The notes under the pieces are model-generated. The model saw nothing but the letters and a program-made list of their open reading frames with translations, was not told where the DNA came from and did not search any database. Positions 6,311-52,436 of a stretch of 64,000 nt of DNA are shown here, piece by piece (the stretch's first letter is position 1; every line of letters starts with the position of its first letter). The DNA is from Halioglobus sp. GTDB lineage: Bacteria; Pseudomonadota; Gammaproteobacteria; Pseudomonadales; Halieaceae. The position numbers were made by a program, and so were the translations under genes. The stretch spans positions 4,376 to 68,375 of the forward strand of contig JBDWQQ010000151.1 of NCBI GenBank assembly GCA_039986455.1. The letters run 5' to 3'.

Positions 6311-7324
6311 ATGCTAATGAATACCATAAGCCCCGTGTATGCCCGTCTGGTGCTTCGCGAAATGGAACGCAACTCTATCGACACCGCGCCTTTATTTGCG
6401 GGCTCGTTACTGACTCGACAACAGCTGTTGCAAGGCGGCGATATTCGCCTTGAAGACTTTCTTCGCATACTCGAAGTCGGGCGGCAAAGTTTAGACGGCG
6501 AGCAACTTGGCCTGATGCTGGGCCGCAATATGCGGATATTTGTTCTTGGGCCTTTGGGCGCAGGCATGGCTGTAGCACCCACCATTCGCGAGGGCCTGCA
6601 ACTCATGGCGAGTCATACTCGCCTGCACACCACCTACACCAGCGTGCACGCCCGCCCCTCCCTGGCGGGCCTCAAATTACTGCTGAAATACCAGTTCGAC
6701 ATGGGCGATCTTGAGCACTTTCACACTGAAACAGCGGTTATGCTGTTTCAGCACTACATTGAGCAAATCACAGGTGAACCACTGGTCGATGCGCACTATC
6801 GCTTATCGATCCCTTCACCTGCCGACCCAAAGGTTTATAGCGAAGCCATACATGGCCAACTGAGTTTCGGTGGTGACCGCGATGAAATCGAGATTCCCCG
6901 GCATTGGCTGGATCACCCCTCCCCCTACTACCATGATGAGCTGTGGCATCAAACTCAGCTCACCCTATCCAAACGCTTGCAAGAAAAAGGGGAGCAACAA
7001 ACGGAAACCTATTCGCAACACGTCAGCGCGTTGCTAGGAACCAGCGAGCCGCCATTACCTGAACTGGGACAGGTTGCAAAAAATCTGCTCGTCTCAGAGC
7101 GAACTCTGAATCGGCGTTTACAGGCGGAGGGTGTCAATTTTCGTCAACTTAAATCACGCGCCCTGGCTAGCTGGGCGAAGATCTACCTGATTCAAACCCA
7201 GAATAGCGTTGAATCCATCGCAGCCAATCTGGGCTATAACGACACGGCAAACTTTCGCCGTGCGTTTCGCAAAAGCACCGGCGCCACACCGAGTGAATAT
7301 CGATTAGCGAACAAGAGAGCATAG
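6311..7324 (+). CDS. AraC family transcriptional regulator
   Basis: 337 aa with a C-terminal double HTH ([20 protein letters not shown] ... [24 protein letters not shown]). Divergent from the desaturase pair. ATG at 6311; a TTG lies at 6308. Confidence 0.85.
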
Positions 7325-7326
7325 CC

Positions 7327-8004
7327 ATGCAAGACTACGAGGCCGTTCCCCTACCCCCAAGCGAACAATACAGCGCCGAAGAGATGAAACGCAGAGCTGA
7401 GAGCTACTATCAGCAAATCAAGCGTCGGCATTCGGTTCGCCACTTCAGCGACCAGCCGGTTTCCAGACAAGTTATCGAAACCTGTATAAAAGCGGCGGGC
7501 ACTGCGCCCAGCGGTGCCAACCATCAGCCATGGCATTTCGTGTGCGTCGGTGACGCGACGGTTAAGCGCAAAATTCGGATCGCGGCTGAACATGAAGAGG
7601 CCGAATTTTACGGCGGCCGAGCCGGCGAAGACTGGTTGGAGGATCTAGACAAACTTGGCACCGATGCGAAGAAGCCCTTTTTAGAGACAGCACCTTGGTT
7701 GATCGCCATTTTCCTTGAGCGCAGCGGCACCGATGAAGAGGGCAAAAAACGCAAGAATTACTACATGTCGGAATCTGTTGGCATCGCGACGGGCTTCTTA
7801 CTGAACGCACTGCACAGTGCAGGCCTGGCGACCCTCACGCACACTCCAAACCCAATGAAGTTTCTTAATGAAATACTAAATCGGCCAACCACCGAGCGAC
7901 CCTATATATTGCTAGTGGTTGGACACCCATCAGACGAGGCTACTGTCCCTGCAGCAGCGCTGGTAAAGAAGCCATTGGGCGAAATTTCAACGTTTATCGA
8001 GTAA
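7327..8004 (+). CDS. Nitro-FMN reductase superfamily protein, iodotyrosine deiodinase (IYD)-like
   Basis: 225 aa with [29 protein letters not shown]...[21 protein letters not shown] and ATVP...KKPL. It resembles animal IYD over its full length as I recall that sequence. Confidence 0.8.
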
Positions 8005-8395: not shown

Positions 8396-8556
8396 GGTCT
8401 ATTTTCCTCTCGTGAGCCAGTGCAACTTAAAGCTAGACGATATTCATCCAAGTCGCCAATGAAGGTCTATGCTGTACAAAGCACTGAAGATTAATGCGTG
8501 TTCATTCACTCATTATTGCCAATGCATCTTCCACCTTATCGAGAGGGAACGACATT

Positions 8557-12950: not shown

Positions 12951-13007
12951 TGTCTGTTCTTGAAGCCCAGGCTACGGTCAAGAAGGTCAGAATTTCTGCG
13001 AGATATC

Positions 13008-13097
13008 GTCGCCTTTGAGGTGATAGCGGACATTTCCATCGCAGATCGAACCAGGCTTAATAACGTCCACTCTCGCCTACATGCGGTCTATTGGTTT
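13008..13097 (+). repeat. Junction repeat, complete copy (hairpin 1 - spacer - hairpin 2 - tail)
   Basis: gtcgcc-tttgaggtgata-gcggac / 33-nt spacer ending aataac / gtccac-tctcgcctacat-gcggtc / tattggttt. Confidence 0.8.
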
Positions 13098-13289
13098 AGG
13101 ATGATGAGTTCAGGATACAGACTTGTATGTATGTTATTTGAGTCAAAAAGATATAAGGAACTGATTTCATGCTCGCTTTCAATTTAGTGAACCTTACATA
13201 CTAGGAATCGGTGTTATATAGACCGTTATGTGTATGTACTTTTTATGTGCAATCAGAAATTATTTTTATATTGAAGAAAAGGAAAAACA

Positions 13290-14177
13290 ATGAAACTGAG
13301 CTCTACTAGAAAAGCCTTACTCCCCTTTCTAGCTCTGTTTAGCGTTGCCTGCGTTGGTCAAACTACACTCCCTACTTTTGAAGGCCCATACTTAGGGCAA
13401 AAGACGCCTAGCTCTACTCCAACTCCTTTTGGCGCTGGCGTTGTATCAACAGATGGCTACGAGTATGGCGGTGTTTTTACTCTCGACATGAGCGAGTTTT
13501 ATTATATAAAAGCAGAAAAAGGTACACGGCGGCAAAATTTTATCGTATATCGCGAAAAAGAAGGCAAATGGTACGGCGAAGTAATGTCTAAAAGACTCGG
13601 ACAACCAGCTATATCTCCAGACGGAAATACCATGCATTTGGGAAGACGTTATCTAGAGCGCAACGACCAAGGTTGGTCCGAACCTAAGAATCTCGATTTA
13701 CCTTTTACCGACATCTCTATAATGCGACTTACCTCCTCTTCAAGTGGCACCTATTTTTTCGATACGTGGGACGAATCCAATAAAGAATTTCCAATCAGGT
13801 ACTCTCGAATTATAGATGGCAAGTATCAGGAGCCACAAAATCTAAGCAAAGAAATTAATACAGGAGCACAACTAAATCACCCTTATATCGCTCCCGATGA
13901 ATCATATTTAATCTGGGATGCGATTCGGGAAGACGGTTTTGGAGACTCCGATCTTTACATCAGCTATCGACAAAAAGATGGATCGTGGGGCGAAGCTATT
14001 AATTTAGGGGAAAAAATAAATACTAAAGCGTGGGATGCAGCTGGATATGTTACGCCAGATGGAGAATATTTTTTCTTCAACCGGATGATCAACTCAGGCG
14101 TAAACAATGAACTGCCAAATGTAGATATCTTTTGGGTAAAAGCAGATTTTATCGAAAAATTAAGACCAAAGCCGTAA
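13290..14177 (+). CDS. Lipoprotein with TolB-like PD40 beta-propeller repeats
   Basis: Signal plus lipobox (LFSVAC). Recurrent PD40-type motifs ISPDGNTM, IAPDESYLIW, VTPDGEYFFF. The gene is visibly more AT-rich than its surroundings. Confidence 0.65.
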   Translation: MKLSSTRKALLPFLALFSVACVGQTTLPTFEGPYLGQKTPSSTPTPFGAGVVSTDGYEYGGVFTLDMSEFYYIKAEKGTRRQNFIVYREKEGKWYGEVMSKRLGQPAISPDGNTMHLGRRYLERNDQGWSEPKNLDLPFTDISIMRLTSSSSGTYFFDTWDESNKEFPIRYSRIIDGKYQEPQNLSKEINTGAQLNHPYIAPDESYLIWDAIREDGFGDSDLYISYRQKDGSWGEAINLGEKINTKAWDAAGYVTPDGEYFFFNRMINSGVNNELPNVDIFWVKADFIEKLRPKP

Positions 14178-14232
14178 TGCATAGCACAAGAAAAGGCCGT
14201 CGGATGCCGCGCACCGCTGCCTGAGCGTTAGT

Positions 14233-14330
14233 GACCGCTATGAGGTGGCAGCGGACATGAGCAACCCCAAGGACGATTCATGCACTCTAACGTCCGCTTT
14301 CGCCTAATAGAGGACATAGGTCTATTCTTG
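14233..14330 (+). repeat. Junction repeat, complete copy
   Basis: gaccgc-tatgaggtggca-gcggac / 35-nt spacer ending ctctaac / gtccgc-tttcgcctaatag-aggac / ataggtctattcttg. Confidence 0.9.
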
Positions 14331-14359
14331 TAGCGGGCAATAGAGTTGAGAGCAAGAAT

Positions 14360-14824
14360 ATGCAGGAACTGACAATTCAAGACTTGGGAAGTATCGGCGA
14401 ACTTTTAGCGGCTATTGCTACTATAGCCACCCTCGCCTATTTAGCAGCACAGATACGCCAAAATACCCACACTGTAAGAGCAGCAACAACTACCGCGCAT
14501 ACTGAGTCAGTAAGCGTCTTTTCACGACTCCTTGGGCAGAGCCAGGAATTGAGTGATCTATATTTTACAGGCCTGGCTGGCGAGGTCGAACTAAGTGAAT
14601 CTCAGCAACGCCAATTTCATATGCTTTTGAGCGGTTTTCTCATGGCAATTCAACAAGCGTACCTTCTTGATGAGGAAGGTATTGTTCATCCAGAGATCAA
14701 GGCGTATCACGCAGAAACGATCGATTGGCTAGCAGAACAGCCCGGATTTACTCCTTTCTGGGACGCATGGGGAAAAACTTTTCCACCAAGCTTCCGACAC
14801 TATATCGAGGGTAAACTGAACTGA
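14360..14824 (+). CDS. Hypothetical N-terminally anchored protein, paralog family A
   Basis: 154 aa, N-terminal IGELLAAIATIATLAYLAAQIRQN. Flanked by junction repeats on both sides. Confidence 0.6.
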   Translation: MQELTIQDLGSIGELLAAIATIATLAYLAAQIRQNTHTVRAATTTAHTESVSVFSRLLGQSQELSDLYFTGLAGEVELSESQQRQFHMLLSGFLMAIQQAYLLDEEGIVHPEIKAYHAETIDWLAEQPGFTPFWDAWGKTFPPSFRHYIEGKLN

Positions 14825-14835
14825 CGCATTCCAAT

Positions 14836-14880
14836 TCGAAACTGTCCGCTTTCGCCTAATAGCAGACTTAGGTCTATCAT
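14836..14880 (+). repeat. Junction repeat, hairpin 2 plus tail only
   Basis: cgaaact / gtccgc-tttcgcctaatag-cagac / ttaggtctatcat; no hairpin 1 after the upstream stop. Confidence 0.85.
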
Positions 14881-14911
14881 CAAGTCACAACAAATTTGAT
14901 AGAGAACAGCT

Positions 14912-15427
14912 ATGCTTTTTGAAGCAACCGAGCGCACGTATCAACTAGATCTTGCTCAGTTTTCCAATGTGGAGTATGCAATGGCCTCGATCTACGAGAG
15001 TCAGGGCTTTTCTACGATTCATCACGATTACTACCTGTTCCATGCGTCTGCAAAGACCAAATACCCAGAGAATGAGCAAGTGCTAAAAGATACGATAGGG
15101 CGCGAACGATTGTCAGCACTTAGAGACATGTGCCGCGCCCTGTATCCTTTAGATGCGGGCCCGGGGCAGAGACCTGAGCAACCAGACTTGTTCGTTTTTC
15201 GCCCGGGCGGTGAGTTCTTTTTTTCTGAGGTAAAACGGAAGAAGACAGGAGACTACTTGCGCGCACCGCAAATGGTCGGTATTTCTCTCATAAAGCAATT
15301 TCTATCGGTTACCACTGAGCTCGCAACTGTTATCGATGAAAGTGAAAAGGAACCGCTCGCACTTCGAACATATCAATGGGTATGGCCTGCAGTGCAAGAA
15401 ACGGGCTTTCATAAAGTCGAAATTTAG
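14912..15427 (+). CDS. PD-(D/E)xK nuclease-fold protein, VRR-NUC-like
   Basis: 171 aa; EQPDLFVFRPGGEFFFSEVKRKKTGDYLRAPQ matches the D...E-x-K ... Q signature of VRR-NUC domains. The last base of the stop codon TAG is the first base of the repeat stem. Confidence 0.55.
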   Translation: MLFEATERTYQLDLAQFSNVEYAMASIYESQGFSTIHHDYYLFHASAKTKYPENEQVLKDTIGRERLSALRDMCRALYPLDAGPGQRPEQPDLFVFRPGGEFFFSEVKRKKTGDYLRAPQMVGISLIKQFLSVTTELATVIDESEKEPLALRTYQWVWPAVQETGFHKVEI

Positions 15428-15520
15428 TCCGCTTTGAGGTGAAAGCGGACAGTACCCGCCCAAGGCCAAATCAGACTCCCTAACGCCCGCTTTCGCCTAA
15501 TGGCTGACTTAGGAGTATGC
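15427..15520 (+). repeat. Junction repeat, complete copy
   Basis: gtccgc-tttgaggtgaaa-gcggac / 34-nt spacer ending ccctaac / gcccgc-tttcgcctaatg-gctgac / ttaggagtatgc. Confidence 0.9.
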
Positions 15521-15552
15521 TTTGTTAATCTTATAATGAAGAGGGTCGAGCA

Positions 15553-15930
15553 TTGACGATACAGGACTACCTGGCAATATTCTGGGATGCACAGGAAGTA
15601 GGCCTGGCAGCATTCATGATGTACCTATCGGTTGTCAGTGGGTATTTAGTAGTTGCATACCTCGTCGGTGCGAAACTCGATCGATTTCAAACTTCGTTTA
15701 TATCCTGCGTATTCGTTATGTTCGCCCTTTACCCCCTATGGGGTGTTGTCGAGTACTGGACCTCTGCCGAGGAAGCGCGGCAGGCTCTTATAGAGCTAAA
15801 AGCCTTAGAGAAGGTCGAGCTTAATCATCTAGGTATAAACGCGGCTATTCCAGCACTACCGATGGGCCTTCTTGGCATAGCTGGATCACTAGTTTTCATG
15901 TGGGATGTTCGTCGAAAGCAGGGACTGTAG
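15553..15930 (+). CDS. Small multi-pass membrane protein, paralog family B
   Basis: TTG start with AGAGGG upstream; SGYLVVAYLVGAKL, C-terminal FMWDVRRKQGL. Confidence 0.7.
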   Translation: MTIQDYLAIFWDAQEVGLAAFMMYLSVVSGYLVVAYLVGAKLDRFQTSFISCVFVMFALYPLWGVVEYWTSAEEARQALIELKALEKVELNHLGINAAIPALPMGLLGIAGSLVFMWDVRRKQGL

Positions 15931-15944
15931 TGGCCGAAATTGCA

Positions 15945-15982
15945 ACCGCCCCCCTTGAGATGAAAGCGGACTTCGGTCTATC
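15945..15982 (+). repeat. Junction repeat, collapsed hybrid copy
   Basis: ccttgagatgaaa-gcggac (hairpin 1 right half) joined directly to the tail ttcggtctatc; the spacer and hairpin 2 are missing. Confidence 0.75.
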
Positions 15983-16016
15983 TTTATCGGAGGACTTACA
16001 ATAAGGAACTGATCAT

Positions 16017-16385
16017 ATGACCGAGTATGAATTGGAGGACGCACTAACTTCAACAACTGTGGCCTCGCTCGAGGCATTTAGTATGTACGTAACTATCTTG
16101 GCTAGCTACTTGGTAGTTGCATATCTTGCTGGGAGCAAGCTAACAACCCAGCAAATGTTTATTGTCTCTGTGCTTTTTGCCGTTTCATCCCTTTTAGCAA
16201 CTTGGTCTGCATTCAGCTATATGGAGCGCTCGATTCCCTTCGCGGATGCTCTTGAGTTACTTAACCCTGAACGCCGGTACGGGGCTCAACCTAGTACCCA
16301 ATATTGGATGCTAACCTTAATGCTACTGGGCGTAGGTGCCTCTCTTAAATTCATGTGGGATGTTCGACACCCCAAGGCGGAGTGA
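16017..16385 (+). CDS. Small multi-pass membrane protein, paralog family B
   Basis: MTEYELED..., SYLVVAYLAGSKL, C-terminal KFMWDVRHPKAE. The stop TGA overlaps the first stem of the repeat. Confidence 0.75.
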   Translation: MTEYELEDALTSTTVASLEAFSMYVTILASYLVVAYLAGSKLTTQQMFIVSVLFAVSSLLATWSAFSYMERSIPFADALELLNPERRYGAQPSTQYWMLTLMLLGVGASLKFMWDVRHPKAE

Positions 16386-16479
16386 CCGCCTAGAGGTGAA
16401 GGCGGACATTACGTGCCCCGGGGCCGATTCATCCCCTCTAACGTCCGCTTTCGCCTAATAGCGGACATGTGTCTATCAT
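16384..16479 (+). repeat. Junction repeat, complete copy (best reference copy)
   Basis: gaccgcc-tagaggtgaa-ggcggac / attacgtgccccggggccgattcatcccctctaac / gtccgc-tttcgcctaata-gcggac / atgtgtctatcat. Confidence 0.95.
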
Positions 16480-16510
16480 AGTCGAAGGCTTATCGATTGG
16501 GAGCAAGGTC

Positions 16511-16879
16511 ATGACTGAAGCGGAGCTACTTGAAGCAGCCAGCAATAACTGGTCAGACACCATTAGTTTACTAACACTGTTCATTAGTGTCATGAGTGGC
16601 TATTTGGTCGTCGCCTATCTAGTCGGCAAGGAACTCAAAACTTCACAAGTCGTGCTTGTAAATTTCCTTTATGGCGCATTTATTAGCTTTTGCTTATTTG
16701 CTATCTATCAAATGTCCGCTACAGCAGTGGAGCACGGTATTCTGGCTAGCGATTTATCAACTCAGCGTTCCAACAGGCCGCAGACTTGGATTCCCATTGT
16801 GTTCCTTGTAATCATGCTTCCAATGATTTTGGCGAGCTTCAAATTTATGTGGGACATCAGACACCCAAAGGCTGAATGA
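16511..16879 (+). CDS. Small multi-pass membrane protein, paralog family B
   Basis: MTEAELLE..., SGYLVVAYLVGKEL, C-terminal KFMWDIRHPKAE. The track start at 16469 lies inside the repeat tail, so I prefer the ATG at 16511. Confidence 0.75.
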   Translation: MTEAELLEAASNNWSDTISLLTLFISVMSGYLVVAYLVGKELKTSQVVLVNFLYGAFISFCLFAIYQMSATAVEHGILASDLSTQRSNRPQTWIPIVFLVIMLPMILASFKFMWDIRHPKAE

Positions 16880-16987
16880 CGGCTTAGAGGTGAAAGCGGA
16901 CATTACGTTGCGCGGTAACCTTCTTGTCGCCCCGGGTCATAAAATTGGCGTTTCCAGTCATTTCTGAAGAACCTCCCTCCCTCTAAC
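16878..16987 (+). repeat. Junction repeat, hairpin 1 plus long spacer, hairpin 2 absent
   Basis: gacggc-ttagaggtgaaa-gcggac-attacg, about 85-nt spacer containing cgccccgggtc and ending ccctctaac. Confidence 0.8.
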
Positions 16988-17020
16988 ATGGCTTCATAAA
17001 CCAATCAGGGAGGAAAGCGC

Positions 17021-17158
17021 ATGGTCGATAGAAAATATTGGGTAGCACTCTGCTTAAGCATTATGATGTGGGCCGCACAACCTGCGTCTGCAGCGTATGA
17101 GGCTGAAAACGGTTCTTTAAGTTACTGCCCTTCGGCAGTACACATGGATTTTAGATAG
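17021..17158 (+). CDS. Candidate 45-aa secreted peptide
   Basis: Own translation: MVDRKYWVALCLSIMMWAAQPASAAYEAENGSLSYCPSAVHMDFR, with strong GGGAGGAAAG upstream. It sits where a cassette ORF is expected. Below the track cutoff. Confidence 0.25.
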   Translation: MVDRKYWVALCLSIMMWAAQPASAAYEAENGSLSYCPSAVHMDFR

Positions 17159-17194
17159 TTGGAAGAAATGTCCAGCATGGTCGTAGATTCTAAA

Positions 17195-17218
17195 GTCCGC
17201 TTTGAGCTGAAAACCGAC
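17195..17218 (+). repeat. Junction repeat, hairpin-1-type singleton
   Basis: gtccgc-tttgagctgaaaa-ccgac. Confidence 0.7.
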
Positions 17219-17356
17219 ACTCTAAGACAACTTCACCTCTTGTGAATTTGCCGGCGATGCTAGATGCATTTTCAGCACTAGGCTGCCCAGAATAGCTAAA
17301 ACCAAATCTCTGCCGAAACCGGGGTGGCCGGATTTCGTGTTGGGTTCGATCACACC

Positions 17357-18970
17357 TCAAGGAACACGCTGGTAGGTGTTGCCGAAGTCGTCGGTGATGA
17401 CCTCGGCTATGCCGTCCACCGTGAGGAGTTCGAAGTCGTCCTTCACAAGGGCCACATGGAATGACCAGCCCTCTGGCAGAACTAGTCTTTGCCCTAACCG
17501 CTGCAGATCAACCAGTTGCTGGTTCCGGTCTTGACCTTGGGTGAAAGACTGCATCCGATAGCGGACACCGTACGGGTCTTCCAATTCGTAGACCTGACGA
17601 CCGGCCACGTAGTGAAACACCGTGTCGCGGCTCACCCTGTTAATTTGGTAAGGCGCCGCTTCACCGATCCCTACCCCCGGGGCTACATCCACGCTGGCAG
17701 CCAGGCGCATGAGGATACCGCCGAAGTTCTCTATCACAGGCGGTCCCGGTGCCATCTCGCTTTCGATGAGATCCAGTACCCAGAAGCGAACCCCGTTGAG
17801 CCCGGCCCCCAGGGCGCCGTAATCGATGGCGACCTGCTCTGCGTCCAGCGCATCCCACAGGTCCTGGGGACAGGTGTTGAGGAGCATCGAGTTATACACG
17901 TCTGCTCGCAGGCCAGTGCTGCCGGGATAGAACAGCAGCATCTCGCAATAGCGAAAATCAAACAGTGGCCCTGTAACCGGCGCGGGCAGTACCGTACCTG
18001 GTACTTCACTGGCATACACCAGAGTGTTCTCCACACCCGCCTCTTTGTATACGAGGGCCTCCTCGGCCTGGGGGTTGAGCGAGAAGGCATTGAGAAAGGC
18101 GTCGCGGCTTGCGTAGCGCACAATCGCCGCCTGCTCCCACTCGACTCTCTCGTTGGTCAGCGTGACCGCTACCGGCATCAGGATATCCGGCAAAGAGTTG
18201 TAACGTAGCAGGGTGGGCAGGATGGCATTGCCATAGACCTCGCTGGCCTCCTCCCCGCTTAAGTCGGTATCGCGTCCGTCGATGAAAGTGGCCTTATCGT
18301 AAAAGTCGATCAGGTTCACCATCCAGAACGGGCTGGGCGCATCGCTGACTACCATGTCAACAACCGCCGCGGTATTGGAATCGAAGCCAGCCCCCTCCCC
18401 GCTTCCCGCGCCGCCGGCACTAGCCAGCAGGGCCAGAGCCTCGTCGTTATCGAGATTCTGCAGCGCCGGATCAAAGTAGCTGCCGCCGGGTTTGATGGGA
18501 AGTAACTCCTCTTCACCGAGCACCCAGGCGTGGTCGTCGCTGGCCGAGGCCAGGGTATTCATCAGGTCGGTGAACGTCGGCGTATCAATGGCGCTGAGCA
18601 GTACCATCATGCTGGGAAATTCAATCACGCGGGTCTGGTTCAGTGAACGATCGCCGACCAACTGGTCGAACACCTGGCTGCGAAAGCGCTCGCTTGCGCC
18701 GATGCTTTCCCACAGGGCGGCGGCCTCCTCTTCGTAGCGCGCAAAAGTCTCGCTGTCGGTGACCGACATCAGTTGCACGAGCGTCACCGGCCTGCCAGTG
18801 TCCGCGTAGTCTAACAGGCCCTGCACGCCGGCCTCGGTGAAATAGGACTGCAGTTCGCCAAACTGCTCAAGCAGCCGATGAGCTTCACTTTTGATGTTGT
18901 CTGAGCTATCGCTGCAACCACTTACCAGTAGCAGGCACAGAACCGCGCCAATCCGCGCAATGGGTTTCAT
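17357..18970 (-). CDS. Lipoprotein of unknown function (537 aa)
   Basis: Lipoprotein signal MKPIARIGAVLCLLLVSGC, long uninterrupted ORF, no family recognised. It is the only minus-strand gene in array 1. Confidence 0.8.
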   Translation of the reverse strand: MKPIARIGAVLCLLLVSGCSDSSDNIKSEAHRLLEQFGELQSYFTEAGVQGLLDYADTGRPVTLVQLMSVTDSETFARYEEEAAALWESIGASERFRSQVFDQLVGDRSLNQTRVIEFPSMMVLLSAIDTPTFTDLMNTLASASDDHAWVLGEEELLPIKPGGSYFDPALQNLDNDEALALLASAGGAGSGEGAGFDSNTAAVVDMVVSDAPSPFWMVNLIDFYDKATFIDGRDTDLSGEEASEVYGNAILPTLLRYNSLPDILMPVAVTLTNERVEWEQAAIVRYASRDAFLNAFSLNPQAEEALVYKEAGVENTLVYASEVPGTVLPAPVTGPLFDFRYCEMLLFYPGSTGLRADVYNSMLLNTCPQDLWDALDAEQVAIDYGALGAGLNGVRFWVLDLIESEMAPGPPVIENFGGILMRLAASVDVAPGVGIGEAAPYQINRVSRDTVFHYVAGRQVYELEDPYGVRYRMQSFTQGQDRNQQLVDLQRLGQRLVLPEGWSFHVALVKDDFELLTVDGIAEVITDDFGNTYQRVP

Positions 18971-19086
18971 GCGTGTTCCTTATCTTTATTAGAATGCGTT
19001 ATGTATAGGGTCGAGTATTGCCAAATAAACTCGCTGATTCTAGCAATTTATGCGAATTTACTTGCCGGCATGAACTGTCGGGCTTT

Positions 19087-19171
19087 TTAACGTTCGCTTT
19101 CGCCTAATAGCGGGCATTACACACTCGGCCACCAAGGTCCGCTTTCGCCCATTTCGAGACATTTGGTTTAC
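19087..19171 (+). repeat. Junction repeat, two hairpin-2-type units in tandem
   Basis: tttaac / gttcgc-tttcgcctaatag-cgggc / attacacactcggccaccaag / gtccgc-tttcgcccatttc-gagac / atttggtttac. Confidence 0.8.
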
Positions 19172-46785: not shown

Positions 46786-46882
46786 AGAATACACCGATGC
46801 TCGGAATTAGGCGAAAGCGGTCATTAGGCCCTGAAGCGGCCCTGAGAAGATAATGTGCGTTTTTCCCTCAAAGAAGCTGAGG
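46786..46882 (-). repeat. Junction repeat, complete but decayed copy
   Basis: + strand reads gaatacaccgatgctcggaattaggcgaaagcggtc-attaggccc...gtgcgtttttccctcaaagaagctgagg. Confidence 0.7.
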
Positions 46883-46922
46883 AAGTATCTAACATACTGG
46901 GAGAAAAGAATTTGGTTTGGGC

Positions 46923-46941
46923 CGCCAGCTTCCTGCTGGCG
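46923..46941 (-). terminator. Hairpin downstream of mscL, weak terminator candidate
   Basis: cgccagc-ttcct-gctggcg. A T-rich run appears only about 15 nt further on the minus strand. Confidence 0.3.
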
Positions 46942-46959
46942 ACCTAATGGCGACGAGCT

Positions 46960-47415
46960 CTAGGCTCCGCCCAGTTCAGATGTGCAGTTAGGACACCTTG
47001 TGGCCTTGATAGCTATACTCGTTAAGCAATGAGGGCACTCTTTTTCAGTAGGCTCAGCCGCCGGTTCCTCTTCTTCCGCTTGCATATTATTAATACTCCT
47101 TATGAGCAAAAATACTGCGAAAGCAACAATCAGAAAGCTTATCACTGCATTGATAAAGACACCGTAGCTAATAGTGACCGCACCGGCCTCTTGGGCGATT
47201 GCCAAGGTTGCGTAGGGACCTGCGTTAGCGCCCTCTTTTAATGTGATAAATAAATCGGAAAAATCGACCCCACCTAAAAGTAATCCTACGGGAGGCATAA
47301 TGACGTCTGCGACCAGGCTCTTCACGATGGTTCCGAACGCGCCGCCTATGATTATGCCCACTGCCATGTCGACGACATTTCCTCGCATTGCAAATTTTTT
47401 AAACTCTTCTAACAT
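46960..47415 (-). CDS. mscL: Large-conductance mechanosensitive channel MscL with a C-terminal CxxC-X10-CxxC extension
   Basis: [28 protein letters not shown]..., ends ...[27 protein letters not shown]. Confidence 0.9.
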
Positions 47416-47758
47416 TAAACACTCTCCTAAACGCTAATTTATTCCTATTCCCAATTAGGGGACAGGCTAGGCAACCAAGCTATAGATTTTTATCCAAGCC
47501 CTCCACGGGTATGCCTGAATAATTGTAGACCATTGGATCGATATTGGGCGAAAGTATGCCCTAGCGAGAAATTTCTATTCATGATTGCTTTTTCTCCCGC
47601 TGGGCTAAACGTACCAATGCCCCGAGAATTGTGACCGTCCGGCTGCGGTCACCTTATTAACACTCAGTTCCACCTATAAAACTGTAAATTAGCGCCGTAA
47701 TCTAAAAACAGCATGCGAAATTTCGTAGCTTTCAACCTCCTTACGCGCAAGGTGTTGC

Positions 47759-47792
47759 AGTTTGCAATTCAAAATACTTCAAGTTGCAAACT
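47759..47792. promoter_or_regulatory. 9-bp inverted repeat with 16-nt spacer in a 570-bp non-coding gap
   Basis: agtttgcaa-N16-ttgcaaact, about 220 nt upstream of the small ORF at 48015. Confidence 0.3.
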
Positions 47793-48014
47793 AAAACTTC
47801 ACAGCTACCTAATCTAGCCCCATCTACCACTGATATGTATGGCACGCATCTTGCTTTTACCTAAGAGCGATAAGGGAGGCGCCCACATTGGCCGGCGTCA
47901 CGCCATGCGAAGCCTCTAATGGCGGTTGGTGGGAGACATCTACCTTCAACTGAATTGTAGATATGCATGCAAAGTCACCCATAAATTTTTACAGACACTG
48001 AAAAGGAAGACGAA

Positions 48015-48242
48015 ATGAACGCAGTTTTAGGAACCCCAAAAGCGTCCCAAGTAAAGACGTCGAGCTTGGCTTTAATAAACAAATCTTCGAGCTACAGCAT
48101 GGATCCTGTCGCTCTGGCTTATCTAGATTTCAATTTGTTTACATCGCTACGCAAGCTGGGGGTAAGCCGTGAAAGATTGTGTTCAGCTTTATGCATCAGC
48201 TACGACGATTACTTCTACTTGTGCGAGCTTGAAATCGCTTAG
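48015..48242 (+). CDS. Hypothetical 75-aa protein, possibly HTH-like
   Basis: AGGAAG 6 nt upstream of the ATG. LRKLGVSRERLCSALCIS looks helix-turn-helix-like. Opposite strand to the surrounding array. Confidence 0.35.
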   Translation: MNAVLGTPKASQVKTSSLALINKSSSYSMDPVALAYLDFNLFTSLRKLGVSRERLCSALCISYDDYFYLCELEIA

Positions 48243-48404
48243 CCGCTCAGCACCGGTGTAGATACACTCTGAAGGTAGAAGTGCGAGCCTTTACTTAATC
48301 AGAGACATTGTGTTTTGGGACGCCTCGTTTGCCCCTTAAAAATTCGTTCCTAGCAGCAAGGGGGGAAAACACCACCCCTTCGCTTATTGAGCCGTCACTA
48401 TCGT

Positions 48405-48510
48405 CAGATAGGACGCCCAAAGCTATCGATGAGGCGAAAGCGGACATTACGGGGACTAATTCTTCGGAGAGTGAGTTATTTTTGCTTTCGCCTCAAAGCG
48501 GACATTGGTC
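48405..48510 (-). repeat. Junction repeat, complete copy with altered hairpins
   Basis: + strand reads ...gatgaggcgaaagcggac-attacgggg...tttttgctttcgcctcaaagcggac-attgg. Confidence 0.8.
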
Positions 48511-48943
48511 CAATCTTGTCTAGCGCCAGAGCTAGACTAACTAGGACGCCGCTAGTGCTCTCAACGACAAACCCTAAACGAAAGTACTGCTCGACTACCG
48601 AAGAGCCTTTAATGGCTCTGCATCTGATGAAGTTTTTGTCGCATTCAAAGACACGGGCACAAAGCCATTGGAAAATTTTGAGCCCATAGATATTGCCCTG
48701 GTGCTCAGGAGCCAGCTGAAGCGTATGTACAAATAAGCCATCCTGCACTTCTTCTACTGAGATAAAGCCTATCCACTGGCCTTTTAAGAATATCGAGTAG
48801 TTATCGAGCGACAAATAGTGTGTTCGGTTCCATTCGTCATCCCACGGAACACCGACTGCTTCTAGCGTGGCTGACATATTCGTCCGCATAAGAATCAGCC
48901 CTTTATCGAACTCAGACTGCTTGGCAGCTACTAACATCAACAT
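48476..48943 (-). CDS. GNAT-family N-acetyltransferase-like protein
   Basis: 155 aa with GNAT-like core LQLAPEHQGNIYGLKIFQW. The last ~11 codons read through hairpin 1 of the downstream repeat. Confidence 0.6.
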   Translation of the reverse strand: MLMLVAAKQSEFDKGLILMRTNMSATLEAVGVPWDDEWNRTHYLSLDNYSIFLKGQWIGFISVEEVQDGLFVHTLQLAPEHQGNIYGLKIFQWLCARVFECDKNFIRCRAIKGSSVVEQYFRLGFVVESTSGVLVSLALALDKIGPMSALRRKQK

Positions 48944-48999
48944 TTACTTAGCAACTCTTTAACAGCGCCTACTAGATGAAATGTTAACCCCGTGAATGA

Positions 49000-49371
49000 C
49001 TAAAGACTGTCACCTGAAATCCAAATCTTTGCGGCATCCAGTTCATTAAAATCAAAGTGCTTGATTTCAGCGCTTACAAAATGATTCCCTACTTTTTCAG
49101 CAATAGTTCCAACTGGAGAATTAGTCGCGAACGCAATGCGTGAAACCCTTCTATGGTGGTCCTTGACGAACTTCAAGTGAGACACGAGGGACGAAAAAGA
49201 GTCCCATCCCGGAAAATTTTCAACATGGATCGCAATGCCTTTTAAGTCACCGTGCTCTTCTATAAACGGGTCAACAATTTCAGCTACTGCCTTAAAGTCG
49301 TTTCCTGAAAGCTCTCCCTCTGGGGTCAATATTGCAATACCTGCCTCTTTATCAAGCTCGATGCTTAACAT
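49000..49371 (-). CDS. STAS/SpoIIAA-like protein (DUF3478 type)
   Basis: MLSIELDKEAGIAILTPEGELS...; AGGAG sits 8 nt upstream of the ATG at 49371. Confidence 0.75.
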   Translation of the reverse strand: MLSIELDKEAGIAILTPEGELSGNDFKAVAEIVDPFIEEHGDLKGIAIHVENFPGWDSFSSLVSHLKFVKDHHRRVSRIAFATNSPVGTIAEKVGNHFVSAEIKHFDFNELDAAKIWISGDSL

Positions 49372-49457
49372 TCGTAATCTCCTGAATCTATTGGACGTAA
49401 ACAACTGATCTAATCTAGGTTATGGCCCGCTTATAGTCGAAAGCGAGGTATTTCTTA

Positions 49458-49553
49458 AGTTTAGACCAAATGACCGCTACTAGGCGAAAGCGGACGTTAG
49501 AGGACTTTATTGGGCCCCGGGGCAGTTAAGCGCTCTTTCACCTCAACAGGGAC
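49458..49553 (-). repeat. Junction repeat, complete copy
   Basis: + strand reads aagtttagaccaaatgaccgctactaggcgaaagcggac-gttagaggactttattgggccccggggcagttaa-gcgctctttcacctcaacagggac. Confidence 0.9.
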
Positions 49554-49626
49554 TATTTAGAGGTGTGAATAGCGCTGTTTTCAATGTCACCTTTGGGGCC
49601 AAGAGCGAAATCTGCCACGCATAAGT

Positions 49627-50193
49627 TCAAACTTTATCGACTGTATATTTCCATTGAATGAAGTCATTGGAAAAAACCTGGGCTTTTGCTTCTGACAGCC
49701 TCACGACTTTCCCGATTTTTCCAAACAAGGGCAGGCCTCCACCCAGCAGGATGGGGGCCTGTGAAACACAAAGCTCGTCGATCAGGTCATGCTGAAAAAA
49801 TGAAGTAATCGTGGCCCCTCCATCCACATAGACATGTCCGAAACCGCTCCTTTCCAACTCGCCATACAACTCGGGGATAGTTCCGGAATACATCCTGACG
49901 TTGCCCGGTAGGCTGCGTGGGGCTTTCGAGACCGATTTGCTCAGCACATGGATTGGAATTTCTCTGTACGGCCATTGGTCTGGAGTCAGGTTAAAACTTG
50001 CTATCTTCTCCATCGTTCTACGCCCCATGACCATGCAGTCTACGGAGTCCAGATAACTCGAAAAACCGCCATCGCCCATAGGCTCTCTCTCCTCGGTTTC
50101 AGCATTTCCAGCAGAGTCTAGCCAATCCACACCACCATCAACGGTGGCAATGTAGCCATCAGCACTAGTAGCAATGTAAACGGAGCACTTCAT
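49627..50193 (-). CDS. Dihydrofolate reductase family protein (RibD C-terminal domain type)
   Basis: MKCSVYIATSADGYIATVDGGVDWL...VYVDGGATITSF. Confidence 0.85.
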   Translation of the reverse strand: MKCSVYIATSADGYIATVDGGVDWLDSAGNAETEEREPMGDGGFSSYLDSVDCMVMGRRTMEKIASFNLTPDQWPYREIPIHVLSKSVSKAPRSLPGNVRMYSGTIPELYGELERSGFGHVYVDGGATITSFFQHDLIDELCVSQAPILLGGGLPLFGKIGKVVRLSEAKAQVFSNDFIQWKYTVDKV

Positions 50194-50216
50194 ACCTGAA
50201 CTCTATTACCATGAGA

Positions 50217-50347
50217 GTCCGCTTTTGACGTCGAAAGCGGCTATTCACCATACCATAGCAGAAACCTCGCAAAGCAGACGAAAGCGAACATTAGGGGCCT
50301 GAGTTGACTCGGGGGCGTGAAACGTCCGCTTTCACCTCAAAGCGGTC
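50217..50347 (-). repeat. Junction repeat, complete copy with duplicated or disrupted hairpin 2
   Basis: + strand reads gtccgcttttgacgtcgaaagcggc...cagacgaaagcgaac-attaggggcctgagttgactcgggggcgtgaaac-gtccgctttcacctcaaagcggtc. Confidence 0.85.
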
Positions 50348-50720
50348 ATTCGGCCTTGGGGTGTCTAACGCTCCACATGAACCAGAGGGAAGCCAAAACC
50401 CCTGCTATTTGAACGAACATAAATAAGTACATATTAAGAGGGGTTCTAGTACCAAAGGGGAGAGCAATCGAATTGATCTCATCTAGTGCTACTTCAATGT
50501 AAACCAAAGAAAAGCCCGCGATGATTTGACCAGAAATAACCGCTGCAACCCATACCAAATATAATATTGAAATAACGGAGGCTTGCGCCTTCGTAAGGTT
50601 TCCGCCCACCAAATAGCTTACGGCCAAATACGCACTAACTAACGTAAAGTACATCTGTCCTGCTTGCCACATCTGGCCCATTTGGTTGTGCATCATCTCG
50701 CCCATTTCATACTCGGTCAT
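50346..50720 (-). CDS. Small multi-pass membrane protein, paralog family B
   Basis: MTEYEMGE..., SAYLAVSYLVGGNL, C-terminal WFMWSVRHPKAE. The stop overlaps the repeat stem. Confidence 0.75.
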   Translation of the reverse strand: MTEYEMGEMMHNQMGQMWQAGQMYFTLVSAYLAVSYLVGGNLTKAQASVISILYLVWVAAVISGQIIAGFSLVYIEVALDEINSIALPFGTRTPLNMYLFMFVQIAGVLASLWFMWSVRHPKAE

Positions 50721-50751
50721 TTCTTGTCTCCGTGTTTATAGAACTACAACA

Positions 50752-50800
50752 AGAATAGACCGATGTCCGCTGTTAGGCGAAAGCGGTGGCTTTGGGGCCA
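50752..50800 (-). repeat. Junction repeat, tail plus hairpin 2 only
   Basis: + strand reads agaatagaccgat-gtccgc-tgttaggcgaaa-gcggtg-gctttggggcc. Confidence 0.8.
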
Positions 50801-50817
50801 GTAAATGCCTCGTAACG

Positions 50818-51330
50818 CTAGTCATTCCAGAGGCAATCGACGGCCCCTGCCTCTGCAATGGACGGGTCGACAGCCTCAACGAAAGAACTTCTGTAAATGC
50901 CCTGTATATTTCCCCATATGCGTTGAAAGCAAGGTCTTCGCGCCTGAGAGGCGGCAATATCTCTCTGGTTCAACCACTCCTCTTCAGGAAGCAGTCCGAG
51001 CTCAAATTGATAATGGGCGTTCTCTGTCGTAGTTAGCCAGACAGTGAGATAAGTCCGGACAACTGAACGCTCGCTTTGGGTCATGGAACTGTGATCATTG
51101 CCCCACAGCTGCAGTGCACTCCTCAGTGTTTCGGGAGCAAGAGAGGCTAGGTTGATATCGATTTCCATTGCCGTCCGCTGCTGGTAGATATCAGCCCGAG
51201 CCATATCTCGGCTCAATTTGAGTTCATAGGCCACAAAAGCTAATGACAAGACAACTCCAAGTGCGGCCAGCATCTGACCAATCCACTGGTATATAGGTAG
51301 CTTCATCCTTGTTTTCCCCATTCGATTCAT
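50818..51330 (-). CDS. Hypothetical N-terminally anchored protein, paralog family A
   Basis: N-terminal TM helix, then YELKLSR and HYQFELGLLPEEEW (compare YHQFQLGLMPDSHW at 8557-9027). Alternative start at 51306. Confidence 0.6.
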   Translation of the reverse strand: MNRMGKTRMKLPIYQWIGQMLAALGVVLSLAFVAYELKLSRDMARADIYQQRTAMEIDINLASLAPETLRSALQLWGNDHSSMTQSERSVVRTYLTVWLTTTENAHYQFELGLLPEEEWLNQRDIAASQARRPCFQRIWGNIQGIYRSSFVEAVDPSIAEAGAVDCLWND

Positions 51331-51337
51331 CCAACAA

Positions 51338-51440
51338 AGGATAACCCGATGACCTCTATTAGGCGAAAGCGGGCATTACGGCCCTTACCAGACCTGGGGA
51401 CTGGAAACGTCCACTTTCACCTCAAAGCTGCTGTTAACGT
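51338..51440 (-). repeat. Junction repeat, complete copy
   Basis: + strand reads ggataacccgat-gacctc-tattaggcgaaa-gcgggc-attacggcccttaccagacctggggactggaaac-gtccac-tttcacctcaaa-gctgct. Confidence 0.9.
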
Positions 51441-51473: not shown

Positions 51474-51887
51474 TTACCTTGTGATGCGAACCGGGTAGCA
51501 CCAATTTTCTCGCCATCGCTCTCGTTTCTCCTCACACGTTTGAGAGCTAAAATTAGCCTGCACAGAATCAGAGAAGCCCAGTTTATTATTAAGACAATTG
51601 GCATTTAACGCGCCGTACAGCTGATCATCAATTTCCGCTGTTACGAATACGAGCTGGCCACAATTGGCGCACTCATGAAAAACAGCGCTTTTTGAGCCGT
51701 GCTGGACCTCTTTAAGAAGTTTTCTATTGCGAATTAAAACATCAAATTTTGTCCCCGACTTTGTGACGTATTTTGCTGCTTTGGATAAGCAATAGTCACA
51801 CTGGCATGCTCGAGGCACCGAGCTGAGATCTACCGTATGCCAAGTAACCTGAATATTCTTGCAATCACAGCTGCCGGAGATACTCAT
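51474..51887 (-). CDS. GFA (glutathione-dependent formaldehyde-activating enzyme) family protein
   Basis: Cys pattern GSCDC...CQCDYC...HECANCG. Confidence 0.8.
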   Translation of the reverse strand: MSISGSCDCKNIQVTWHTVDLSSVPRACQCDYCLSKAAKYVTKSGTKFDVLIRNRKLLKEVQHGSKSAVFHECANCGQLVFVTAEIDDQLYGALNANCLNNKLGFSDSVQANFSSQTCEEKRERWRENWCYPVRITR

Positions 51888-51956
51888 TTAAGGGGCTTAT
51901 TACAGCTCATCAAAGCGGTTACTCAGTCTTGGCCCGTCGGTAGTGGGAGTGCGGGG

Positions 51957-52436
51957 TTATTCGCTTGCTTCGGGGACGACGCTGTAGTGCAGGCTAACAA
52001 TCTTCCAGGCACCTTCAATTTTCTGCCACACATCGGTTTCAAAAGCGCGTTCCTCGTTCATGCCCTGCGGATAGCGCGTGCGGTTGTCGATGAAGTAAGT
52101 GACGATAGCCATGTCGCCGCTAGGCATAAGCTGCACAAGTAGGTCCGATGTGTCGTTCTTCTCGACACCACCACCGGCGTTCATCAGTGAGTGCCATTCC
52201 TCGTTGTATGCGACTATGTCCTGGCGTTCGCCGTAAAAGTACACACTCGCATTCTCGGCATAAAAGCCGAAGTAGGTATCGACGTCGTTGGTCGCGTAGG
52301 CCTCGTTAAATGATGTATATGCGGTGGTGAGATCTTCGGGAATCTTTCCCTGATTCTCGGCGTTGGCCGCCAAGGGCAAGTGCAGAAGGAATAGAAGAGA
52401 GAGTGCGGCGCAACTAAATAGCATCTTGTAGTTCAT
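51957..52436 (-). CDS. Secreted SnoaL/DUF4440-like (NTF2 fold) protein
   Basis: Signal peptide ending LAANA. FNEAYATNDVDTYFGFY and WKIVSLHYS are typical of the fold. Confidence 0.7.
   Translation of the reverse strand: MNYKMLFSCAALSLLFLLHLPLAANAENQGKIPEDLTTAYTSFNEAYATNDVDTYFGFYAENASVYFYGERQDIVAYNEEWHSLMNAGGGVEKNDTSDLLVQLMPSGDMAIVTYFIDNRTRYPQGMNEERAFETDVWQKIEGAWKIVSLHYSVVPEASE

Follow-up and report, generated by a model that had tools for sequence, protein, structure and literature searches.

The DNA analysed here, a stretch of 64,000 nucleotides (nt) hereafter called the window, comes from a metagenome-assembled genome (MAG) of Halioglobus sp. and carries at positions 16384-16479 a copy of a double-hairpin repeat lodged between small co-oriented genes. 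That this repeat is real and far beyond chance is confirmed. Tentatively, and with a little less than an even chance of being right, we read it as a non-canonical cassette-junction recombination element specific to the Halieaceae. Such an element would combine the array logic of integrons with the anatomy of REPINs (hairpin-forming doublets of repetitive extragenic palindromic sequences, or REPs) or BIMEs (bacterial interspersed mosaic elements), and would be served by a recombinase acting in trans or by host-mediated exchange. An earlier note, made from the letters of this DNA alone, had proposed either a non-canonical recombination site or a REPIN-like doublet, and its interpretation as a whole is partly supported.

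Sequence and anatomy of the repeat

In what follows, h1 and h2 stand for hairpin 1 and hairpin 2, and L with three digits denotes a numbered related locus. The sequence of 16384-16479 reads as previously described, in the order GACCGC-CTAGAGGTGAAG-GCGGAC, ATTAC, a spacer with GCCCCGGGGC, TCTAAC, GTCCGC-TTTCGCCTAATA-GCGGAC and ATGTGTCTATCAT. It fills the space between two cassette open reading frames (ORFs), with the following parts:

16017-16385, + strand: upstream cassette ORF, 122 aa, a family B small membrane protein with the C-terminus ...FMWDVRHPKAE; the TGA that ends it extends over the first bases of h1
16384-16407, + strand: h1, GACCGC CTAGAGGTGAAG GCGGAC, the REP-like unit reversed; positions 10-24 (GAGGTGAAAGCGGAC) are nearly invariant across the family
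16408-16442, + strand: linker, with the ATTAC box, a semi-conserved spacer holding a small GGCC...GGCC-type hairpin, and the TCTAAC box, which is the head of the h2 unit
16443-16466, + strand: h2, GTCCGC TTTCGCCTAATA GCGGAC; positions 1-15 are nearly invariant, whereas positions 16-24 are variable and travel with the downstream cassette
16467-16511, + strand: tail and leader of the next cassette, ATGTGTCTATCAT...GGGAGCAAGG; the ATG at 16512 lies 46 nt past h2
16512-16879, + strand: downstream cassette ORF, a family B paralogue whose stop likewise runs into an h1 (16878-16901)

Taken over 86 full copies, some in the window and others in related loci, the consensus is AatGaCCGCTTTGAGGTGAAAGCGGAC-ATTaCCCgCCCcAaGGCCGAATCAGGCCCtCTAAC-GTCCGCTTTCGCCTAATAGCGGAC-ATtgGTCTATgCTT, in agreement with the one drawn up in the earlier note. 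Its two 24-nt palindromes are in fact a single 30-nt unit (xxTAAY-GTCCGCTTTCRCCTMAWAGCGGAC; in full 5'-xxTAAY-GTCCGCTTTC(G/A)CCT(A/C)A(T/A)AGCGGAC-3') set twice, head to head, around a spacer of about 29 nt. When the unit is stacked in both orientations, 23 of the 30 consensus positions are identical, which bears out the suggestion that h2 is roughly the reverse complement of h1. Both units keep their head (AA), 5' arm and loop at about 90% conservation or more; the 3' arm and the spacer are less conserved. The invariant core is thus an 18-bp inverted repeat (GAGGTGAAAGCGGAC-R-TT / AA-Y-GTCCGCTTTCGCCTA) around a semi-conserved spacer of about 29 nt. The inner boxes stand in the order RTTA...TAAC that the note described, their TT and AA positions being 84-90% or more conserved. 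Searched at gathering thresholds, Rfam had no match anywhere in the window.

Folded as single-stranded DNA (ssDNA), the + strand of 16380-16470 forms one long hairpin with about 28 bp per arm (-17.9 kcal/mol, z = -2.4), the very stem that had been anticipated. On comparing the two strands, the sense strand gave this long hairpin and the antisense strand tended to local hairpins. A T.G pair on the ORF-sense strand is conserved in 57 of 61 copies, and for this reason the sense strand is the better long-hairpin folder. The unpaired positions of the stem are two mismatches (T.T and G.A) rather than bulges or extrahelical bases.

Distribution and exchange of cassettes

Within the window, the h2 24-mer has 9 matches at up to 3 mismatches, where shuffled sequences lead one to expect 0. 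A profile built from 61 copies gave 14 significant matches, all of them in two arrays at 13005-19169 (+, 8 sites) and 46789-51434 (-, 6 sites) that occupy 17% of the sequence. Full doublets, h1 alone and h2 alone all occur:

13008-13088, 14233-14315, 15427-15508 and 16384-16466, + strand, within 13005-19169: doublets
14844-14867, 19092-19115 and 19137-19160, + strand, within 13005-19169: h2 only
15948-15971, 16878-16901 and 17195-17218, + strand, within 13005-19169: h1 only
51351-51432, 50266-50347 (with a degenerate h2), 49472-49553 and 48422-48503, - strand, within 46789-51434: doublets
50765-50788 and 46799-46822, - strand, within 46789-51434: h2 only

Beyond the window, when species-representative genomes were scanned for the h2 core, 33 loci came back, all from Halieaceae apart from a few chance matches, the carriers being Halioglobus, Haliea, Seongchinamella and unclassified Halieaceae. 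Some of these loci share cassettes with the window at 87-92% identity. The profile search of the window and 29 related loci brought the number of copies to 150, including 101 doublets, 15 copies of h1 only and 25 of h2 only. At least two copies lie within 8 kb of each other in 28 of the 30 sources, and copies are almost always co-oriented. A metagenome scan returned 16 short contigs only; there was no match among 72,556 plasmids, and none in the phage and viral contig collections. The literature searched held no description of the repeat and nothing that links Halieaceae to integrons, and this double-hairpin repeat of about 100 bases is apparently undescribed.

The cassettes change neighbours. 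As far as sequence comparison goes, modular shuffling takes place at both hairpins: an all-against-all comparison yielded more than 20 pairs that match on one side of a junction (86-100% identity) and bear no relation on the other. The breakpoints, read for both classes from near-identical pairs, fall either at about positions 9-16 of h1 or in the range from 3 nt before h2 through h2 position 15. Homology ends just past GTCCGCTTTCGCCT(A) in h2 in the pairs L002/L021, L027/L045, L032/L044, L041/L048, L011/L018 and L009/L040, and at h1 positions 9-16 in L004/L036, L032/L048, L017/L023 and window/L033. With two classes of breakpoint, the spacer accompanies the upstream cassette in some cases and the downstream cassette in others; breaks in either invariant arm therefore mean that ORF modules (h2 3' arm, leader, ORF and h1 outer arm) and a 60-nt linker module (h1 inner arm, spacer and h2 inner arm) are exchanged independently. 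Single events can also be recognised. L018 holds one cassette more than L011, with the join inside h2, and the family-B cassette at 50325-50786 occurs in three contexts (the window; L050, 94%; L051, 87%) with different neighbours and with homology running from h2 to h1. The recombination junction postulated earlier thus gains from the same cassettes standing in different contexts with breaks in the hairpins; no integrase or RAYT was found in the window and the related loci.

The linker compartment can also carry cargo, as indicated by the 1.9 kb between the h1 at 17195 and the h2 at 19092, which hold one gene:

17357-18970, - strand (reverse-oriented): 537-aa lipoprotein gene (DUF1330 region) in the linker compartment

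This reverse gene was considered as a mobility protein and rejected, being a lipoprotein unique to the window.

The repeat is closely bound to the genes it separates. In 100 of 114 inter-repeat segments, which measure 380-1900 bp, the longest ORF lies on the strand of the repeat. The 110 cassette proteins fall into 65 clusters and include two large paralogue families, of 21 and 19 small membrane proteins respectively; one of the two has 648 database relatives, mostly on short contigs. GNAT-like, GFA, RibD_C, SnoaL/NTF2-like, SpoIIAA-like, MscL, DUF427, PD40 and reverse transcriptase proteins make up further cargo, which is typical of chromosomal cassettes. The upstream stop codon lies within h1 in 32 of 54 callable cases (18 of the 54 have the TGA of T-GACCGC, at h1 position 2), and the next ATG follows 41-49 nt past h2 in about 35 of 80 copies. 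The conserved module consequently covers the whole intergenic region.

This locking bears directly on the possibility of an ordinary REPIN. In REPINs two invariant 16-mers, approximately, form inverted repeats that each overlap an imperfect palindrome, with a less conserved spacer between them and a hairpin in ssDNA or mRNA, and compensatory changes are common (PMC3116915). The 30-nt unit described here (xxTAAY + GTCCGC-N12-GCGGAC) is likewise an imperfect palindrome of 20-60 nt with a conserved head, and doublets account for 101 of the 150 copies, with invariant stretches of about 16 nt, a variable spacer and a predicted hairpin. The TAAC head recalls the GTAG head that REPs carry. The REPIN or BIME layout suggested earlier therefore stands as far as an inverted doublet of one palindromic unit with a TAAC head is concerned; the copies are not dispersed, and no RAYT (REP-associated tyrosine transposase) was found in the window and the related loci. 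If the doublet were itself the mobile or maintained unit of a BIME-type REPIN, a single-copy RAYT elsewhere would replicate it, copies would have piled up in hypervariable islands, and shuffling would be a by-product. We consider this unlikely, even though the anatomy follows the published definition closely, singlets and doublets coexist, and the linker is swapped independently of both flanking ORFs. Random extragenic spread was not seen: some 50 other intergenic regions of the window hold no copy, and all copies belong to co-oriented arrays of small ORFs. Random insertion would not lock the repeat to ORF ends in the way implied by a stop inside h1 and a set distance from h2 to the ATG. Moreover, the hairpin displays no compensatory changes, and six-frame translations of the window and 49 loci contain no pair of HUH and Y..NP motifs such as a RAYT would have.

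A number of observations concern the surroundings of the arrays. The two arrays of the window are mutually inverted around about 27 kb of ordinary genes; in related genomes arrays occupy other chromosomal positions, and the one in L028 abuts a homologue of window 55706. The h1 at 15948-15971 is joined straight to the GGTCTAT tail that normally follows h2. This tail motif occurs 13 times in the window against 4.9 expected, 7 of them in array junctions, and its occurrences at 8396 and 8464 lie just upstream of ORFs at 8.4 kb, outside detectable arrays. At 8.5-13 kb, small co-oriented ORFs may represent old cassettes whose repeats have decayed. At 51887-51960 (-), compared with L012:4469-4510, a degenerate h1 follows a SnoaL-like ORF and is fused some 15 nt ahead of where the following ORF (GFA) starts, with neither linker nor h2. 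Many h2 copies are followed by a second type of tail, CTTTGAGAC-GTTTCTGCTATGCTG...TAAT-GTCCGCTTACGAC (19137-19160, the 50245 region (-), L022, L023, L033 and L032), which amounts to an extra h2 head and 5' arm about 30 nt downstream.

Other observations come from further loci. A 343-aa reverse transcriptase (RVT_1, with a YMDD motif) is found as a cassette directly after an h2 at L017:332-1360 (+). Array segments of Ca. Seongchinamella marina and of a Halioglobus MAG (L017:282-3202 versus L023:1-1470 and 7174-8000) are 98-99.8% identical, and the 8.8-kb MAG contig of L023 appears circularly permuted relative to the isolate (L017); this picture could come from recent transfer, from wrong binning of the contig or from an assembly loop that repeats induced. 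In L059 and L060, two metagenome contigs from ENA (for example L059:11065-11330 and 15625-15800), homologues of the family-B cassette protein lie in arrays with another junction repeat, TGACCGCTWTCG...CAGCAGAC...GGCAGCTAACGACGCA, and these arrays also carry toxin-antitoxin genes and rve transposases. They suggest a wider class of such arrays with lineage-specific junctions.

Expression features, recombinases and possible mechanism

The leader between h2 and the ATG contains a hairpin of its own, YCCTTRTYR...YRAYAAGGR, whose 3' arm overlaps the AAGGAG Shine-Dalgarno sequence. It is present in 11 of 15 leaders (z = -2.3 to -4.6), for instance at window 51293-51350 (-) and 15972-16016 (+), L027:936-993 and L004:1822-1879, often with GGAGG in the loop. 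Judged by eye, its variants are apparently compensatory (ATT/AAT, GTT/AAC, GTCG/CGAC and ATCA/TGAT). On the strength of these sequences, the leader part of the module points to a role at the RNA level. Consensus scans for promoters and terminators gave no enrichment, with no sigma-70 promoter at the tail of h2 and no terminator at h1; the only call at a repeat was at the fusion of h1 and tail, 15955-15984. The string TTCGCC-N18-TATCAT, formerly put forward as a weak sigma-70-like promoter, is present and scores below the threshold of the consensus scan, so that the h2 tail was not called.

These features could be taken to mean that the module serves expression only. It would consist of an intercistronic RNA hairpin, which processes or stabilises polycistronic transcripts, and a leader, both kept uniform by gene conversion, with shuffling due to homologous recombination alone. 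Several lines of evidence speak for such a module: the T.G(U) wobble has been conserved, and of the two strands the sense one is the better folder; the orientation of the repeat is strictly tied to that of the ORFs; the leader hairpin pairs with the Shine-Dalgarno sequence and varies as noted; breakpoints are restricted to conserved blocks, as homology-driven exchange predicts; and no recombinase was found nearby. It would leave unexplained, however, the precise framing of unrelated ORFs from 65 clusters by one and the same module, and the invariant blocks are just 15-20 nt, a length that is short for RecA-dependent exchange. The repeats also have neither intrinsic terminator nor consensus promoter, and no covariation is seen in the long stem or in either of the hairpins h1 and h2. 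All in all, a purely expressional module seems improbable to us.

Turning back to the recombination element that we favour, its enzyme was searched for in several ways. Neither the window nor 391 kb of related array-proximal sequence encodes a recombinase of any class, and over the same DNA a tblastn search with an IntI1 query found no IntI-like gene. The search returned only two short C-terminal pseudogene fragments of tyrosine recombinases. They lie at L001:6741-6971 (-) and L009:1555-1791 (+) of one Halioglobus MAG, measure about 77 aa (HDLRH...LGH...Y) and are convergent, at the downstream ends of two arrays. A protein database search with a recombinase fragment gave four other short fragments only and no intact gene. 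When 105 ORFs from related loci, each 180 aa or longer, were scanned against Pfam and PHROG, two rve transposases and one reverse transcriptase (cassette cargo) came up, and neither an integrase nor Y1_Tnp was among the families listed for these ORFs.

The absence of a recombinase from all this DNA is one of the results that weigh against a cassette-junction recombination element. Pairing and covariation did not exceed those of shuffled controls, for the local hairpins and the long stem alike, and the pairing that is seen follows from sequence conservation rather than from covariation. In the diverged case of L051 the breaks lie at other points of h2 and h1. Breakpoints can be placed no more finely than the invariant blocks, the only spots open to homology-driven exchange, and for that reason do not distinguish site-specific from homologous exchange. 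Circular or excised intermediates were not observed in the data. Lastly, the test for attC sites, reported below, was a rule-based one.

Should the repeat nonetheless act in recombination, its units in sense-strand ssDNA would fold as two hairpins or as one hairpin of 28 bp, and cassettes would be joined by strand exchange or template switching inside the arm and loop of one or the other hairpin. This joining would be analogous to the role of attC in integrons, with a different site architecture. The enzyme, acting in trans, could be HUH/RAYT-like or a tyrosine recombinase encoded elsewhere, or else the machinery of host recombination and replication could suffice. A further role of the module, in RNA, is probable: it would provide a hairpin between cistrons and a leader that sequesters the Shine-Dalgarno sequence. 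A bolder proposal, which we put forward with considerable doubt, is that of a new cassette system in Halieaceae, in which inverted pairs of REP-like hairpins replace attC and a non-IntI enzyme (for example a RAYT-like HUH protein) directs exchange to the hairpins at two sites per junction, with kindred arrays elsewhere (L059/L060).

To our knowledge, integrons are the sole well-understood system that stockpiles and shuffles single-gene cassettes, and the origin of these cassettes is still unsettled. The arrays of Halieaceae bear all the genomic hallmarks of an integron, yet their junction is REPIN-like, with no canonical R box and no linked integrase. Possibly, cassette arrays can run on another kind of recombination site; alternatively, genes can be arranged into exchangeable modules by elements of the REP type. 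As two carriers are cultured (Seongchinamella unica GH4-78 and Ca. S. marina IMCC8485), the question is directly testable. Were the repeat an ordinary REPIN or a divergent attC, its value would be smaller, namely that of a lineage-specific repeat family of help in annotating Halieaceae genomes and in accounting for their fragmented assemblies.

Comparison with known systems

Canonical attC sites have their R box at the base of the hairpin, 5'-RYYYAAC ... GTTRRRY-3' (PMC5027507; covariance-model consensus, PMC8352920). They recombine at a single point in R', and their bottom strand folds better, aided by G:T pairs (PMC5027507; PMC4889954). At the base of the present hairpin stands GTCCGC/GCGGAC, and the TAAC/GTTA boxes sit close to the loop, in the order GTT...AAC. 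Canonical sites were sought with a rule-based scan that combined AAC...GTT, complementarity within the R box and arm duplex energy. It detected nothing at the repeats of the window and of five related loci, and its overall yield did not exceed that from shuffled sequence; both controls, the aadA1 attC and the Vibrio cholerae repeat (VCR), were recovered. The earlier contention that the architecture departs from canonical attC is upheld by the swapped order of the boxes and by a scan that is blank at the repeats and detects its controls. One candidate, CTAAC...GTTGGAG as a short canonical attC around h2, was rejected with its arms unpaired; its GTTG pairs with a downstream CAAC of the leader hairpin, and the tail travels with the downstream ORF.

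The likeness to integrons, and to CALINs (clusters of attC sites lacking integron-integrases), lies in arrays whose compact cassettes mostly hold a single ORF, share one orientation and have diverse and paralogous functions. Common to both are also a lineage-specific imperfect palindrome of about 60-130 nt that begins at the stop codon, and the presence, absence and reordering of cassettes among relatives, with no need for an adjacent integrase. By length and fold (an imperfect palindrome of about 57-141 nt that forms an ssDNA hairpin) the repeat would pass for an attC. One may thus ask whether it is the canonical site of an ordinary sedentary chromosomal integron or CALIN, with its IntI elsewhere and its R and L boxes missed. 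The array logic, the cargo and the attC-like length of the palindrome would agree with this, attC sequences are poorly conserved across lineages (PMC5027507), and CALINs with no adjacent integrase are common (PMC4889954). We nevertheless hold it to be very unlikely. Besides the result of the scan, the repeat has no AAC...GTT R box at the base of its hairpin, and its inner boxes are reversed. Each junction has two exchange regions instead of one crossover in R' (G|TT), the stem has mismatches where attC has extrahelical bases, and the stabilising G:T pair is on the sense and not on the bottom strand. No IntI was found in the window and the 391 kb of related loci, and conservation extends here through the leader up to the ATG.

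Like REPs and REPINs, the repeat is made from one short, imperfectly palindromic unit whose 5' head is conserved and which occurs both singly and in inverted doublets. RAYT genes were reportedly found by Nunvar et al. in 2010 to be bracketed by inverted REPs, and each ORF of the present arrays is similarly bracketed by inverted units. The differences are that copies are confined to cassette arrays, with position and orientation locked to ORF ends, and that the heads face inward; neither compensatory changes nor a RAYT were found, as set out above.

A third comparison is offered by the Xer-dependent pdif sites of Acinetobacter plasmids, which alternate in inverted orientation around modules. 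Here as there, sites of about 24-28 bp, alternately inverted, bracket every segment, and the modules on both sides are exchangeable; in both systems modules are widely shuffled with no dedicated recombinase gene in the module. The repeat differs in being a 9-6-9 palindrome of which only one arm and the centre are invariant, in being chromosomal, with no match in the 72,556 plasmids, and in having compartments that alternate between ORF and 35-nt spacer. It is also unlike what we take to be the consensus of the gammaproteobacterial dif/XerC-XerD site.

Lastly, the NIMEs (Neisseria intergenic mosaic elements) are mosaic blocks flanked by dRS3 palindromes of 20-24 bp with a 6-N-6 layout, reshuffled among strains. 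In both systems short palindromes flank mosaic blocks. The blocks of NIMEs are non-coding and 50-150 bp long, whereas those of Halieaceae comprise whole ORFs with conserved leaders.

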